Shown here: positions 1-4,985 of the stretch, in pieces
Position numbering within the stretch: position 1 is the first letter of the stretch
Layout: every line of letters starts with the position of its first letter
Notes under the pieces: model-generated
Told to the model about the DNA's origin: nothing
What the model saw: only the letters and a program-made list of their open reading frames with translations
Databases searched by the model: none
Position numbers and translations under genes: made by a program
From: a virus
Taxonomy: Duplodnaviria > Heunggongvirae > Uroviricota > Caudoviricetes
Reading direction: 5' to 3' (one strand)
Virus record (IMG/VR): IMGVR_UViG_2579778535_000006
DNA length: 4,985 nucleotides

Positions 1-118
1 ATGACAAAGTCATCGGGCATTATCTGAACATAAAACACTATCAATAAGTTGGAGTCATTACCGTGGTTATGAATTTTATATTGAGAATTATCCTGAAGCA
101 GGGCTTTATCTTGCAGAA

Positions 119-679
119 ATGCTTTACTTACCCATTGATTTAATTGAGAGTTTCCAAAAACTTTATACGGTAACTGATCAAATACGTAACAAAACAAGTT
201 TCTTTTTACCTCAGAATCCTGAGTTAATATATTGTTGGGAGCAACTAAAAACATCTGTTTCCCGAGGCTTCTCAACTAAAATTCAGGAGCACTTAGCAAT
301 GGGCGTTCTACTTTCGTTAGGAGTGAATCATGTTAATCATTTACTTTTATCATATAGTAAACAATCATTGATAAGTCGTTGTTATAACCTGCTGCTATCC
401 GAACCCGGCACAAAATGGACAGCAAACAAGGTTGCTCGATATCTCTACATTTCTGTTTCTACATTACATCGCCGTCTAGCAAGCGAGGGGGTAAGTTTCC
501 AAAGTATACTGGACGATGTGAGGTTAAATAATGCGTTGTCTGCTATACAAACGACGGTAAAACCTATAAGCGAGATTGCCAGAGAAAATGGTTATAAGTG
601 TCCTTCTCGTTTTACTGAAAGATTTCATAATCGTTTTAATATAACACCAAGAGAGATAAGAAAAGCTTCCAGAGAGTAA
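119..679 (+). CDS. AraC/XylS-family transcriptional regulator; 5' end uncertain, possibly truncated or frameshifted
   Basis: The C-terminal ~95 aa ([42 protein letters not shown]...[26 protein letters not shown]) has the layout of the AraC-type double helix-turn-helix domain. ORF is AT-rich. First canonical start is ATG 119 with no obvious Shine-Dalgarno; the frame is open back to position 5 but closed by TGA at 2-4. By position it could correspond to the DLP12 ybcM regulator, but I cannot confirm this. Confidence 0.6.
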
Positions 680-743
680 AAGTGTTTTAAGAAGGAGCAA
701 TTCTATCGATTTTGATTTTGGGAAATCAACACGGCATAATTAT

Positions 744-772
744 GTCACCGGAGCCTGAACAACTCCGGTGAC
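744..772. repeat. Perfect 10-bp inverted repeat with 9-nt spacer (GTCACCGGAG-cctgaacaa-CTCCGGTGAC)
   Basis: Read directly from the sequence. Lies between the AraC-family stop (679) and the nin operon start; followed by TTCTGCGC, a weak T tract, so it is either a weak terminator for the upstream gene or a protein-binding site. Confidence 0.4.
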
Positions 773-795
773 TTCTGCGCTAAACGGGGACGTTT

Positions 796-897
796 ATGCG
801 CACATACAATCCAAACTCTCTTCTCCCTTCACAGATGCAGAAATGCACCTGCAATTCTTTGCATCTAGCGTTTGACCTCTGCGGAGGGGAAGCGTGA
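796..897 (+). CDS. Small hypothetical protein, 33 aa (ylcH-like)
   Basis: ATG 796 to TGA 895-897 translates to [33 protein letters not shown]. Its stop overlaps the GTG start of the next gene (GTGA), and a 33-aa ylcH sits at this position in DLP12. Not in the supplied ORF track (below length cutoff). Confidence 0.4.
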
Positions 898-1349
898 ACC
901 TCTCACAAGACGGCATCAAATTACATCGCGGCAACTTCACCGCTATCGGTCGGCAGATCCAGCCTTATCTGGAGGAGGGCAAATGCTTTCGCATGGTGCT
1001 TAAACCGTGGCGTGAGAAACGCAGTCTTTCCCAGAATGCACTCAGCCACATGTGGTACAGCGAAATCAGTGAATACCTCATCAGCAGGGGTAAAACGTTC
1101 GCCACTCCAGCTTGGGTAAAAGATGCTCTCAAACACACATATCTCGGTTATGAAACCAAAGACCTGGTTGATGTCGTAACCGGTGATATCACCACTATCC
1201 AGTCGTTACGCCATACCTCCGATCTTGATACCGGAGAGATGTATGTCTTCCTGTGTAAGGTTGAAGCCTGGGCGATGAATATTGGTTGCCACCTGACTAT
1301 TCCACAGAGCTGCGAGTTCCAGCTGCTGCGCGACAAGCAGGAGGCGTAA
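894..1349 (+). CDS. ybcN: NinB-family protein (phage recombination/DNA base-flipping protein, YbcN-like), 151 aa
   Basis: ORF 894..1349 starts at GTG 894, preceded by GGAGG at 883-887. The motif [16 protein letters not shown] aligns with the lambda NinB SLDQN region. Length and position match DLP12 ybcN immediately upstream of ninE. Confidence 0.8.
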
Positions 1350-1519
1350 TGGCTACACCGCTTATTCGTGTCATGAACGGACACATCTACAGAGTACCAA
1401 ATCGTCGTAAGCGTAAACCTGAGCTGAAGCCATCCGAAATACCAACACTGCTCGGATATACCGCCAGCTTGGTTGATAAAAAATGGTTGCGACTGGCAGC
1501 AAGGAGGAGTCATGGCTGA
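1349..1519 (+). CDS. ninE: NinE-family phage protein, 56 aa
   Basis: ATG 1349 overlaps the ybcN stop (TAATG); GGAGG lies just upstream. Product [56 protein letters not shown] is basic with the RKRKP motif typical of lambda-type NinE. The ORF track's 77-aa version (from 1286) is an upstream extension in the same frame. Confidence 0.8.
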   Translation: MATPLIRVMNGHIYRVPNRRKRKPELKPSEIPTLLGYTASLVDKKWLRLAARRSHG

Positions 1520-1802
1520 TTTGAGAAAAGCAGCGCGTGGTCGGGAATGCCAGGTAAGAATCCCTGGCGTATGTAATGGCAACCCTGAAACGTCTGTACT
1601 GGCACATATCCGGCTGACTGGATTGTGCGGCACCGGTACGAAACCGCCAGACCTGATTGCCACCATTGCATGTTCTGCCTGCCACGACGAAATCGACCGC
1701 CGCACGCATTTTGTTGACGCTGGATATGCAAAAGAATGCGCGCTGGAAGGTATGGCGAGAACACAGGTTATCTGGCTGAAAGAGGGGGTTATTAAGGCGT
1801 GA
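1512..1802 (+). CDS. ybcO: YbcO-like phage protein (DUF1364, putative Zn-binding nuclease), 96 aa
   Basis: ATG 1512 preceded by AGGAGG at 1502-1507; overlaps the ninE stop by 8 nt. Product starts [23 protein letters not shown] and carries two Cys pairs (C..C and CSAC) suggesting a Zn site. The ORF track's longer form (from 1473) lacks an RBS. Confidence 0.8.
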
Positions 1803-2161
1803 ATACCTACAGCATCACATTACCCTGGCCTCCGAGCAATAATCGCTATTACCGCCATAATCGCGGGCGCACGCACGTCAGCGCAGAGGGGCAGGCATAC
1901 CGCGATAACGTCGCCCGAATCATTAAAAACGCAATGCTGGATATCGGCCTGGCTATGCCTGTGAAAATCCGCATTGAGTGCCACATGCCGGATCGCCGTC
2001 GCCGTGACCTGGATAATCTGCAAAAAGCCGCTTTTGACGCACTCACTAAAGCAGGTTTCTGGCTGGATGATGCTCAGGTCGTTGATTACCGCGTTGTGAA
2101 GATGCCTGTTACCAAAGGTGGGAGGCTGGAACTGACCATCACCGAAATGGGGAATGAATGA
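1799..2161 (+). CDS. rusA: Holliday junction resolvase RusA, 120 aa
   Basis: GTG 1799 overlaps the ybcO stop (GTGA). Product [36 protein letters not shown]... matches my recollection of RusA, with acidic residues at the catalytic positions D70, D72 and D91 ([10 protein letters not shown] ... WLDDAQ). Confidence 0.9.
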
Positions 2162-2298
2162 TGTTTGAGTTTAATATGGCAGAACTTCTTCGCCACCGCT
2201 GGGGGCGTCTGCGCTTATATCGTTTCCCCGGTTCTGTTTTGACCGATTACCGAATACTGAAGAATTACGCCAAAACCCTGACAGGAGCAGGAGTATGA
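2158..2298 (+). CDS. ylcG: Small phage protein YlcG-like, 46 aa
   Basis: ATG 2158 overlaps the rusA stop (ATGA). Translated by hand to [46 protein letters not shown], stop TGA 2296-2298. Position between rusA and Q matches DLP12 ylcG. Not in the supplied ORF track. Confidence 0.6.
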
Positions 2299-2383
2299 AG
2301 TCAGAGATAACAATCAACTAATACTGTTTTGTTGATTTTTGCTTGTAATTGGCGTTCTGGTCTGATTTTTGTGGAGTAAGTTG

Positions 2384-2767
2384 ATGCGTGATATTCAGAT
2401 GGTTCTTGAGCGTTGGGGAGCGTGGGCGGCTAATAATCATGAAGATGTGACCTGGTCGTCCATTGCCGCCGGTTTTAAGGGATTAATTACTTCAAAAGTA
2501 AAATCTCGCCCGCAATGTTGTGACGATGACGCGATGATCATTTGCGGGTGCATGGCCCGTCTGAAAAAGAACAACAGCGATTTGCACGATTTATTAGTAG
2601 ATTATTATGTAGTCGGTATGACATTCATGTCACTGGCAGGTAAGCATTGCTGCTCTGATGGTTATATCGGGAAAAGGTTACAGAAGGCTGAGGGCATAAT
2701 TGAAGGGATGTTAATGGCATTAGATATCCGGTTAGAGATGGATATCGTTGTTAATAACTCTAATTAA
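2384..2767 (+). CDS. quuD: Late-gene antitermination protein Q (phage 82 / DLP12 QuuD type), 127 aa
   Basis: ATG 2384 preceded by GGAG at 2373-2376. Product [26 protein letters not shown]... with Cys cluster (PQCCDD, ICGC) typical of the Q82/QuuD family. The ORF track start at 2369 is a TTG extension; ATG 2384 has the better RBS. Confidence 0.85.
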
Positions 2768-2906
2768 TATGCCAATTGTTTACTAAAAATTATTAAAAAT
2801 GGGGCGTTGAGACGCCCCCAAAAATAAAGGGTAATATATAACAGAAGGTTTATATAGTTAGAAGCAAGGTTGTGCTTCTAAAGGAAGTGGCTTGAGGGAG
2901 CCACTT
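2768..2906 (+). promoter_or_regulatory. Candidate late promoter / Q-utilisation region (pR'-qut-like) with three stem-loops
   Basis: Sits immediately after Q, where lambdoid phages carry pR' and qut. Stem-loops seen at 2801-2818 (GGGGCGT-tgag-ACGCCCC), 2858-2881 (9-bp stem) and 2885-2906 (AAGTGGCT-tgaggg-AGCCACTT). I could not identify a convincing sigma70 -35/-10 pair by eye, so the promoter assignment is positional only. Confidence 0.25.
2785..2818 (-). terminator. Candidate intrinsic terminator for minus-strand (porin) transcripts
   Basis: The 7-bp GC-rich stem at 2801-2818 is followed on the minus strand by ATTTTTAATAATTTTT. It lies about 140 nt past the porin stop. Confidence 0.35.
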
Positions 2907-2947
2907 ATATGTTGGGGAGGCAACGCCTCCCGCAACATATCTTTTTC
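2907..2947 (+). terminator. Candidate intrinsic terminator for plus-strand transcripts (tR'-like)
   Basis: ATATGTTGGGGAGG-caacg-CCTCCCGCAACATAT forms a roughly 14-bp stem with one bulged G, followed directly by CTTTTTC on the plus strand. Position after Q and the candidate pR' matches lambda tR'. Confidence 0.5.
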
Positions 2948-2956
2948 GTAATCAGA

Positions 2957-4054
2957 TTAGAACTGGTAAACCAGACCTACAGCAACGATGTCATCAGTGC
3001 TTACACCGAGTGCTTTAGTGAAGTCATTTTTGTCAAGCAGGTTGATTTTGTAATCAACGAAAGTAGACATATTTTTGTTGAAGTAATAGGTTGCACCTAC
3101 ATCAACATATTTGACTAAGTCCTGATCGCCCCATACTCCAAGATCCTTACCTTTAGATTGCAGGTAAGCAACGGACGGACGCAGACCGAAATCGAACTGA
3201 TATTGTGCAACAGCTTCGAAGTTTTGGGCTTTATTAGCAACGAAGTGATCAGCAAATACAGTCATATTCTGGGTTTCAGAATAGGTAGTGGCCAGGTAAA
3301 TGTTGTTAGCGTCATATTTCAGACCTGCGGCCCAAACTTCTGCATTTTTACCGGAAGCAAATACTTCAGGAAGAACTTTCCCTGCATTAACTTGAGTGTC
3401 GGTACGATCAGATTTCGCATAAGTTGCACCGATACCGAATCCTTCGTATTCATAGGTAGCAGAGAAACCGAAGCCATCACCGTTACCTTCAGTGTAGTTA
3501 TCGAAATCGCTACGATCGTTTTTGCCTTGGTACTGAGCAGCAAAGTTCAGACCATCAACCAGACCAAAGAAGTCGTTGTTACGATAGGTTGCAACACCAG
3601 TTGCACGTTGAGTCATGAACACGTCGGTTTGAGTCCAAGTGTCACCACCGAATTCTGGCAGGACGTCAGTCCACGCACCGATGTCGTATGCTACACCGTA
3701 GTTACGGCCGTAATCGATGGAGCCGTAGTCACCGAATTTCAGGCCAGCGAAGGCAAGACGGGTTTTATCTTTGGAGGAACCTTGAGATTCAGCGCGGTTG
3801 CCTTTGAATTCATATTCCCACTGACCGAAACCAGTCAGTTGATCGTTGATTTGGGTTTCACCTTTGAAGCCAAGACGGGCATAAGTAGTATCACCATCAT
3901 CTGCATCATTAGAGGAGAAGTAGTGCTTAGCATTAACTTTCCCGTACAGATCCAGCTTGTTACTGTCTTTATTATAAATTTCAGCTGCCTGAGCAGACAT
4001 CGCCATTAGTACTGATGCAGCTACAGCAGAAATTGCCACTGTTAATTTTTTCAT
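2957..4054 (-). CDS. nmpC: Outer membrane general porin, OmpC/OmpF/PhoE/NmpC family (prophage-encoded, NmpC/Lc-like), 365 aa, intact
   Basis: Minus-strand ORF; true start is ATG 4054-4052 ([23 protein letters not shown] signal peptide, [10 protein letters not shown] cleavage site). Mature N-terminus [17 protein letters not shown] and the motifs RLGFKGETQ and GNGDGFG, plus a C-terminal ...GLVYQF, are those of enterobacterial 16-strand porins. The ORF track's start at 4114 adds 20 non-signal residues and is rejected. No IS interruption. Confidence 0.9.
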
Positions 4055-4481
4055 CGTGAGCCCTTTTTTTGAACTATTATTAAAAAATGATGTCACTGCG
4101 CGATAAATATTCATCTAATCAATGTGATTATTTCAAGATGTAAGTTTTGGTTTCTCGTTTGATTTGTGAAGTAGATCTCTATTTTTATCTGAACTTTTTT
4201 CTATCGAATCCTATTCATGGCTCTTGGCTGAATAAAAATAAATCTATTAGCCAATTTATATTAACGGCTGTTATTTATAAGTGCTCTATAATTTGAAGGT
4301 TCAATTTAAACCGGCTAAAAATAACACTGGAAATTATTTTTTGGTTATTTGTTGAGATTTGCTTATGTATTTGTAGTGGTGTTTTCAATACTCGGTAGCA
4401 TTCTCTCAAATATCATTTAGTGGTTTACGTACGTAAAAAATTGGTTATGCTGTTAAGAGTGGTTACTTCGTCACACAGCTT
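4055..4481 (-). promoter_or_regulatory. AT-rich upstream control region of the porin gene (promoter not mapped)
   Basis: Roughly 570 bp without a credible ORF between the porin start (4054) and the holin start (4627), strongly AT-rich with many A/T tracts, as in porin regulatory regions. The exact promoter is not resolved. Confidence 0.3.
4424..4437. promoter_or_regulatory. Perfect 14-bp palindrome TTTACGTACGTAAA, candidate dimeric regulator binding site
   Basis: Read directly; self-complementary over all 14 nt, embedded in AT-rich DNA about 45 bp upstream of the plus-strand terminator and about 190 bp upstream of the holin start. Confidence 0.3.
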
Positions 4482-4515
4482 AAACCCGCCGTCGAGCGGG
4501 TTTTTCCATTTTTTG
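4482..4515 (+). terminator. Rho-independent terminator, plus strand
   Basis: AAACCCGC-cgtcga-GCGGGTTT stem (8 bp, GC core) followed by TTCCATTTTTT. Orientation is unambiguous: the T tract follows the hairpin only on the plus strand. About 110 nt upstream of the holin start. Confidence 0.6.
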
Positions 4516-4626
4516 AGTCTCGATATTAGCTGATAACCCAATACCTGAGTTATTCACTGACTCCGAGTCTGTTACGTTTCGTAGTATTCCCTCAATTTAC
4601 ACCCGCTTTGTCTGCGAGGTGGGGTT

Positions 4627-4842
4627 ATGAAATCCATGGATAAGTTAACAACGGGTGTCGCCTATGGCACCTCAGCAGGTAGTGCCGGGTACTGGTTTTT
4701 ACAGCTGCTAGATAAAGTCACTCCCTCACAGTGGGCAGCAATAGGTGTGCTGGGTAGCCTGGTATTTGGCCTGCTGACGTACCTGACAAACCTTTATTTC
4801 AAGATTAAAGAAGATAAGCGCAAGGCTGCGAGAGGTGAATAA
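4627..4842 (+). CDS. essD: Class II holin (pinholin), phage 21 S-type, 71 aa, with dual-start motif
   Basis: ATG 4627 preceded by GAGGTG. Product [71 protein letters not shown]: Met1-Lys2-Ser3-Met4 dual start, a Gly/Ala-rich weakly hydrophobic TMD1, a hydrophobic TMD2 and a charged C-terminal tail, as in S21 pinholin. Confidence 0.9.
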
Positions 4843-4985
4843 TGCCTCCATCATTACGAAAAGCCGTTGCTGCTGCTATTGGTGGCGGAGCAATTGCTAT
4901 AGCATCAGTGTTAATCACTGGCCCAAGTGGTAACGATGGTCTGGAAGGTGTCAGCTACATACCATACAAAGATATTGTTGGTGTA
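4842..4985 (+). CDS. rrrD: SAR endolysin (phage 21 R-type lysozyme), 5' portion only; continues past window end
   Basis: ATG 4842 overlaps the holin stop (TAATG). Translated by hand to [48 protein letters not shown], whose Gly/Ala-rich N-terminal segment is a signal-arrest-release domain. Partial, 48 codons in window. Confidence 0.85.

Follow-up and report, generated by a model that had tools for sequence, protein, structure and literature searches.

The locus described here raises the question of where late transcription begins in a lambdoid prophage whose late antiterminator gene, Q, and holin gene are separated by a porin gene of opposite orientation. The window, that is, the whole stretch of 4,985 nucleotides that was analysed, carries a porin gene of 365 codons on the minus strand (2957-4054), between Q, which ends at 2767, and the holin, which starts at 4627. 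These coordinates had been given in an earlier note on this DNA, and every one of them is correct. That note also placed the porin within the late operon, had Q-modified late transcription running antisense through it to the lysis genes, and deduced a mutual antagonism between porin expression and late transcription. Whether such a conflict exists depends on the position of the late promoter, pR'.

The window belongs to the DLP12 (qsr') lambdoid prophage of Escherichia coli. Positions 63-4985 are 100% identical to K-12 strain NCM3722 and to many other E. coli genomes, in which the porin is annotated as intact (WP_000737280.1). The plus-strand open reading frames are a truncated AraC-type regulator (ybcM), ybcN, ninE, ybcO, rusA, ylcG and the Q antiterminator; the minus strand has one long open reading frame (2957-4114), beyond which an S21-type holin follows on the plus strand. 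The NCM3722 annotation across the region reads, in the same order, ybcM, ybcN, ninE, ybcO, rusA, ylcG, quuD, porin, essD and rrrD. The first 62 nucleotides (1-62, strand not assigned) do not align to the ybcM of NCM3722 and match IS1 ends found in thousands of E. coli records, marking the end of an IS1 element inserted in ybcM. This insertion sets the window apart from the DLP12 prophages of the complete genomes in the collection, none of which shares it.

The antiterminator gene, annotated quuD in both NCM3722 and MG1655, occupies 2384-2767 on the plus strand and encodes 127 amino acids; its match to the Pfam family Phage_antitermQ (PF06530, E 4e-53) was scored on the longer TTG-start reading frame at 2369-2767. 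QuuD is about 78-81% identical to the Q proteins of Stx phages such as 933W, and its similarity to Q21, for which a structure has been solved, is distant only (E 7.6e-7). Q21 was considered as a comparator and set aside in favour of 933W and Sp5; the two TGAGCA repeats to which Q21 binds are absent here, as expected from the distance between the two proteins. The first late gene is essD (4627-4842, plus strand), annotated as such and recognized as an S21-type holin by Phage_holin_2_1 (E 2e-35). The elements thus follow one another as Q, the reverse-oriented porin cassette, pR', a terminator and the holin, with 1.66 kb between Q and pR'.

The late promoter was recognized by comparison with related phages. 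Matches in 356 phage records were obtained with a 251-nt probe from the segment immediately preceding the holin, and 277 of these records, mostly Stx phages, matched only over 4423-4505 (60-80% identity, E 3e-7 to 6e-9); among the matches listed, the homologous segment stands directly after Q. In 933W this stretch overlaps the end of Q and is annotated as pR', qut and a terminator. The homologous pR' in the window (4424-4466, plus strand) consists of a -35 element, TTTACG, at 4424-4429, a -10 element, TATGCT, at 4446-4451 and a conserved core, TAAGAGTGGTTAC, at 4454-4466. Pairwise alignment with 933W showed that TTTACG lies within a 14-nt palindrome in both phages, that the -10 reads TATCAT in 933W, and that TAAGAGTGGTTAC is identical and is followed in both by a hairpin rich in G+C and its T-run. 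933W, Sp5, PA-2, SfII, PhiR40_1, 1720a-02 and 4A7 all share the 13-nt core without a difference, and in six of seven relatives the -35, the -10, the identical core and the hairpin could all be aligned. The -35 region varies among phages with different Q alleles, a pattern that would suit a Q-binding region evolving together with its Q.

The start point of this promoter can be placed with the help of published data on phage Sp5, whose PR' start was mapped by dRNA-seq and whose 258-nt transcript ends at tR' (PMC7547250). In the Sakai (Sp5) sequence, the distance from the seventh nucleotide past the -10 to the end of the T-run of the second terminator is exactly 258 nt, so that the mapped start corresponds to an A within the conserved core, equivalent to position 4458 of the window; pR' is accordingly predicted to start near 4458. 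Downstream, a terminator scan (match at 4482-4503) and folding identified a plus-strand hairpin with a T-run at 4482-4510, which is shared with 933W, where it is the first annotated terminator beyond pR', and is a candidate tR' for Q to override. Since the 258-nt PR' transcript of the Stx phage passes the homologue of this hairpin (PMC7547250), the structure at 4482-4503 may be a weak or leaky terminator. The dependence of pR' on Q is likewise argued from homology, and the binding of QuuD and terminator read-through at this promoter are putative. A consensus promoter scan of 2600-4700 returned no plus-strand promoter at a threshold of 9 of 12 matching positions; both pR' and the porin promoter PnmpC score 8 of 12 and were therefore missed, and the placement of promoters in this work relies on homology and on the literature.

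The window has a single copy of the core, at 4454-4466, and none between Q and the porin. The same layout was found in all 76 IMG/VR loci that combine an identical Q with enough downstream sequence, the core lying beyond the porin in each and the gap from Q to core measuring 1669-1689 nt in 74 of them and more in two with extra insertions; this Q-anchored search yielded identical-Q loci alone, all porin-bearing, and so sampled no diversity. For that reason the survey was repeated with the pR' core as anchor, as described below.

Because the sole pR' unit of the window lies at 4424-4510, late transcription would begin beyond the porin, at about 4458, and proceed rightward, away from the gene. 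The proposal that the porin sits within the late operon is therefore not supported, and neither is antisense passage of the late transcript through it; the postulated antagonism is contradicted by the position of pR', and with the late promoter on the far side of the porin there is no late-transcription conflict to explain. The reading that we favour, at a probability of roughly 0.85, is that the locus represents the nmpC/lc conversion cassette of a DLP12/PA-2-type prophage in its ancestral, IS5-free form, located between Q and pR' and outside the late operon.

The identity of the gene itself is not in doubt. The minus-strand reading frame 2957-4114 would encode 385 amino acids from its first ATG, and the actual start of this nmpC (Lc-type) coding sequence is the ATG at 4054, which opens the sequence MKKLTV and gives a product of 365 amino acids, comprising a signal peptide (4054-3986) and a mature porin of 342 residues; a 23-residue signal peptide is also marked on Lc in the PA-2 record. 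Residues 29-365 match the Pfam model Porin_1 over its entire length (positions 1-337 of 337, E 4.7e-157, with a score of 523 bits where the cut-off is 23.7), in agreement with the proposed full-length member of the OmpC/NmpC family. The translation shows an N-terminal Sec signal peptide, the loop-3 motif PEFGG and a C-terminal YQF. The best relatives of solved structure are OmpC and OmpK36 (E ~1e-137), and the end-to-end alignment of OmpC, OmpK36 and PhoE chains suggests a trimeric diffusion pore of 16-stranded beta-barrels. The comparison with Lc of phage PA-2 (GenBank J02580) that had been recommended gave 98.9% amino-acid identity, and about 40 deposited lambdoid phage genomes carry the gene at the same place.

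No frameshift, premature stop or insertion was found in 2957-4054, and the open reading frame and its intactness are far beyond chance. The contrast drawn earlier with MG1655-type K-12, in which nmpC is a pseudogene split by IS5 after codon 346, holds accordingly. The uninterrupted gene is nevertheless the usual state and no notable exception: of 5426 complete E. coli genomes, 2249 were matched by a 311-nt probe across the IS5 site, with the junction in one unbroken piece in 1923 of the 2249, and among the matches listed the split copies belonged to K-12 laboratory derivatives. The feature exists and functions, but as the long-known nmpC/lc conversion porin, together with what is probably a known small RNA.

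Evidence for expression comes from published work on the identical sequence in NCM3722. Quantitative proteomics showed that NmpC makes up about 2% of the proteome of this strain, 200-fold more than in an MG1655 derivative, that it rises under carbon limitation, where it is the main porin, and that OmpC is more than 10-fold less abundant than in MG1655 (PMC8144880). The suggestion of an active lysogenic-conversion function is in this way supported, and the two grounds on which it might have been abandoned, an undetectable product or disrupting mutations, are answered in favour of the gene by these proteomic data and by the intact alignment. The promoter, PnmpC, is of the sigma-70 type and is activated by CRP; it was mapped by 5' RACE, its activity was lost when -199 to -1 relative to the start codon was deleted, and two CRP sites as well as OmpR, IHF and MprA sites have been listed (PMC11677980). 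The deleted segment corresponds to 4055-4253 on the minus strand of the window, where a scan located a CRP-like site at 4165-4180, the same site as that annotated in the PA-2 record if there are no indels between the two sequences. An extended -10 is tentatively predicted at 4132-4127, with a start near 4120. PnmpC and pR' are divergent and about 340 bp apart, and the spacer between them (4254-4423, no strand assigned) is AT-rich (GC 0.28-0.34 across 4051-4500) and contains no open reading frame with a family match.

At its other end, the porin gene is followed by a structured 3' untranslated region that had been missed, the earlier note being right about the porin gene while leaving out the small RNA, probably IpeX, downstream of it. 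IpeX is a 167-nt RNA of DLP12 that originates at the porin promoter, is processed from the porin transcript and controls OmpC (PMC12197685, a review); repression of both ompC and ompF by IpeX has also been described (PMC5069750). In the window, 167 nt, the published length of IpeX, separate the porin stop codon from the last position of the terminator T-run, and on this basis the RNA is tentatively placed at about 2790-2956 on the minus strand. A series of hairpins is predicted for the minus strand of 2768-2960 (-67.2 kcal/mol, z -9.2), and the 3' untranslated region shows 96% conservation between porin alleles with no more than 85-89% identity in their coding DNA. Neither IpeX nor a pR' RNA was matched when the entire window was compared with Rfam at E up to 1; the sole match, a Wolbachia sRNA scoring 24 bits where the cut-off is 291 bits, is attributable to chance. 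In MG1655, IS5 cuts the 3' untranslated region, and with it IpeX, off from PnmpC; the window has the complete unit, in keeping with the low OmpC level of NCM3722.

The 190-nt spacer between Q and the porin contains a predicted terminator for each direction. The intrinsic terminator of the porin/IpeX transcript (2791-2818, minus strand) folds at -13.9 kcal/mol and has a stem at 2818-2801 with seven pairs, six of them G-C, followed by ATTTTTAATA. On the plus strand, just before the 3' end of the porin, a hairpin at 2907-2940 (-21.3 kcal/mol, z -5.45) is followed immediately by a T5 run; together, the hairpin and CTTTTTCG (2907-2949) form a predicted intrinsic terminator for rightward Q transcripts, at which unmodified polymerase coming out of Q would halt. 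No gene other than Q converges on the porin.

According to the proposed explanation, the cassette would operate as a self-contained leftward unit of about 1.6 kb (roughly 2790-4420). CRP-activated, sigma-70-dependent PnmpC (within 4055-4253) would drive a general diffusion porin and its structured 3' untranslated region, the transcript would end at the terminator at 2818-2791, and the 3' untranslated region would be processed to IpeX (about 2790-2956). NmpC would then enter the outer membrane as IpeX lowers OmpC and OmpF, so that the lysogen may exchange its major porins and thereby alter its permeability and surface receptors, and pR' would fire rightward into essD-rrrD-rzpD, away from the porin. 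With its own promoter (PMC11677980) and its own terminator, identified here, and with its position between two elements, Q and pR', that are adjacent in related phages, the cassette has the characteristics of a moron.

Three alternatives have to be weighed against this explanation. In lambda, N-modified transcripts from the early promoter pR ignore terminators and extend through Q. A comparable read-through could carry lytic antisense transcription across the porin in intact phages such as PA-2, mEp332 and 4A7, starting from N-antiterminated pR and not from pR'; the porin is the next gene after Q, on which it converges. This is a possible but doubtful source of antisense RNA, and the plus-strand hairpin and T-run at 2907-2949 would stop any unmodified polymerase. 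In NCM3722, whose sequence is 100% identical over 63-4985, the early region of DLP12 is reduced to fragments (exo, P and ren), and the mechanism would therefore not apply to this cryptic prophage.

Another alternative, which we consider improbable, regards the segment at 4424-4510 as a relic and has the lysis genes transcribed mainly from a different promoter between nmpC and essD, for example an RpoE-dependent one. A regulatory region of the DLP12 lysis operon described as '-121 to +650' was cloned by Pasqua et al.; their forward primer lies at 3982-4001, and the core of the reverse primer, Pdlp12Rv, at 4735-4747 is enough to place the amplicon, although the full-length reverse primer was unmatched in the window at up to three mismatches. 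These positions put +1 near 4103 and thereby suggest a further promoter, and a reference list names, by title, a paper on RpoE control of the cassette. Against this reading, porin phages, the INPHARED genomes 4A7 and PA-2 among them, conserve the pR' unit perfectly, and the title of one paper reports Q-dependent control of the DLP12 lysis cassette; moreover, a plus-strand start at 4103 would still lie outside the porin coding region and would leave the main conclusion unaffected.

The arrangement proposed in the earlier note, with pR' directly after Q as in lambda and a late transcript that crosses the porin antisense in mutual antagonism with it, is very improbable, since the adjacency of pR' and Q in lambda, 933W and 1720a-02 and a weak likeness to the pR' -35 region (GTTTAC..TAAAAAT) at 2778-2795 are outweighed by the lack of a -10 and of the conserved core in 2768-2956 (the core being found solely at 4454-4466), by the minus-strand terminator and plus-strand terminator-like hairpin in the spacer, by the complete pR' homologue at 4424-4510 and by the same layout in every porin-bearing relative examined. 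The stretch at 2778-2795 was also considered as a relic or second pR' and was rejected as a promoter, having neither a -10 nor the core; it may mark an old insertion junction, a suggestion drawn from a very short similarity.

The placement of the porin cassette between Q and pR', as preferred here, has parallels in other phages. Q and pR' adjoin in 933W, Sp5 and 1720a-02. In PhiR40_1 they are separated by a reverse-oriented open reading frame for a 148-aa lipoprotein-like product, and in SfII by two reverse genes that match the candidate defence system PDC-M53. In ev245, a reverse gene for a Blc lipocalin follows Q, and two plus-strand genes precede the sole pR'-like -35 motif of the locus, in which the conserved pR' core was not found. 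The survey anchored on the core yielded at least 118 IMG/VR loci. A Q homologue lies upstream in 98 listed loci, the gap being shorter than 100 nt in 24 of the 98 and between 600 and 2400 nt in the other 74, and the open reading frames in the gap form 34 clusters among the loci listed, 32 of them on the minus strand; these figures count contigs in a redundant sample, not independent insertion events. The cargo includes the porin, Kiwa (KwaA, KwaB), PDC-S20, PDC-S42 and an HNH/PDC-M68A-like protein, along with NA37-family proteins, an esterase, lipoproteins and many open reading frames of no known function.

The survey shows directly that the gap between Q and pR' is a variable slot with mostly reverse-oriented cargo. 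Our reading is that in phages with a QuuD/Q933W-type antiterminator this junction may serve as a dedicated exchange slot for reverse, terminator-bracketed cassettes expressed in the lysogen, such as porin and IpeX, Kiwa, PDC-S20 and PDC-M53. These cassettes would converge on Q, with the cargo transcript ending no more than about 35 nt from the stop codon of Q. A tie between cargo and Q expression could be imagined from this geometry, and the paQ antisense RNA of lambda provides a comparable case. Transcription of nmpC driven by cAMP-CRP might lower Q expression by convergent interference or by pairing of IpeX with the 3' end of the Q mRNA; such coupling is conjectural and unlikely, and if it were true, prophage induction or the timing of late genes would be tied to host physiology.

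The biological importance of the intact porin is already documented. When carbon is limiting, few outer-membrane proteins are more abundant, and the porin and IpeX jointly displace OmpC, with consequences for permeability to antibiotics and nutrients and for sensitivity to phages and colicins. The antisense conflict was the one element of the finding that sounded new, and it is contradicted by where pR' is predicted to lie. The useful outcome is thus a correction: the late promoter appears to be on the far side of the porin, which is then not antisense inside the late operon, and RNA-seq designed around a late-transcription conflict would be misdirected. Additionally, the variable slot between Q and pR' is of some practical use in the search for accessory and defence genes.

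Comparison with known systems places the window closest to nmpC of DLP12 (qsr') in E. coli K-12, which is the same locus, with ybcM...rusA-ylcG-quuD on one flank and essD-rrrD-rzpD on the other; W3110-type K-12, like MG1655, differs in having IS5 after codon 346. Porin Lc ('protein 2') of phage PA-2 is a classical lysogenic-conversion porin, and its gene, lc, agrees with the porin of the window in its orientation to the lysis genes, the pR' core, the 3' untranslated region and the end of Q; the PA-2 record of 1986 already shows lc divergent from the lysis genes. PA-2 is, however, a viable temperate phage, whereas DLP12 is a defective prophage, and four amino acids distinguish Lc from the porin of the window. 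OmpC, PhoE and Salmonella OmpD belong to the same Porin_1 family, the whole mature protein aligning with the solved OmpC, OmpK36 and PhoE at E ~1e-132 to 1e-137, and phage annotators often label the gene OmpD or OmpC. Those three are chromosomal core genes, in contrast to the porin of the window, which is phage-borne, lies between Q and pR' and probably has IpeX in its 3' untranslated region.

In 933W and Sp5, too, accessory genes stand between the holin and a Q of this family; stx occupies the interval, and the pR' unit is homologous. There, stx is a Q-dependent gene located after pR' and transcribed in the same direction (PMC7547250), whereas the porin lies upstream, is reversed and is expressed in the lysogen from its own promoter. 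The outer-membrane proteins Bor and Lom of lambda resemble the porin in being expressed by the lysogen. Their genes have their own promoters. They differ from the porin in their genome positions and in having no associated small RNA. A bor homologue is located just past the lysis genes of DLP12. Finally, the P1-like temperate phage P7 carries an nmpC homologue that is about 80% identical to the porin, in the different context of a P1-type plasmid prophage.

In phages of the QuuD Q family, the interval between Q and the late promoter pR' is a variable slot. This interval corresponds to 2768-4423 in the window, to 826-2500, 2406-3000 and 3894-5770 in the comparison loci L006, L008 and L007, respectively, and to the equivalent stretch in the surveyed IMG/VR loci, from L093 onward. 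Among the IMG/VR contigs listed, a redundant set in which contigs rather than independent insertions are counted, the gap is absent in 24 of 98 and holds 0.6-2.4 kb of cargo in the other 74. The cargo proteins group into 34 clusters, and 32 of these are encoded on the strand opposite Q. The proteins identified include Kiwa, PDC-S20, PDC-M53, PDC-S42 and an HNH/PDC-M68A-like protein, along with NA37-family proteins, an esterase, lipoproteins and unknowns.

The porin that fills this slot in the window (2957-4054, minus strand) also varies between loci carrying an identical Q. Comparison with the alleles of loci L013 and L075 placed the differences chiefly in four patches, at about residues 181-187, 219-233, 268-272 and 340-352, outside of which the protein and its 3' UTR are almost invariant. 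We suspect that the four patches correspond to surface loops shaped by diversifying selection.

A derivative of phage 434 deposited as 434B (OL657227) contains the entire block of Q, nmpC::IS5 and lysis genes. Two segments of this block were compared with the window, at 4380-4630 and over residues 1-347 of the porin, and both are 100% identical to it; the record annotates the block as non-homologous to 434. Phage 434B appears to have acquired the DLP12 right arm together with IS5. At the left edge of the window, an IS1 element interrupts ybcM, and its end makes up bases 1-62. This junction is absent from all of the collection's complete E. coli genomes. Because of the insertion, the ORF at 119-679 is just the C-terminal portion of the AraC-type regulator that ybcM encodes.

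If Q transcripts end at the hairpin predicted at 2907-2949 and porin transcripts at the terminator predicted at 2818-2791, their 3' ends would overlap by about 150 nt (within 2768-2956, both strands), and the 3' end of the Q mRNA would therefore be complementary to almost the whole of the sRNA IpeX. On the other side of the porin gene, the DLP12 lysis-operon regulatory region has been described in published numbering as -121 to +650; its forward primer lies at 3982-4001, which places +1 near 4103 on the plus strand, roughly 50 nt away from the start codon of the porin, which is read from the opposite strand. Such a start, if real, would produce a 524-nt leader running through pR' and its hairpin.

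Within pR' itself, a perfect 14-nt palindrome encloses the -35 region, both in DLP12 (TTTACGTACGTAAA, window 4424-4437) and in phage 933W (TTTACGATCGTAAA, 702-715 of locus L003). The two differ by a change of two central bases that preserves the symmetry. The palindrome may be a Q-binding element or a site for another regulator. SfII and 1720a-02, which carry other Q alleles, have different short palindrome-like sequences at the same position, GCGTACGC and the imperfect GCGGTCCGC.
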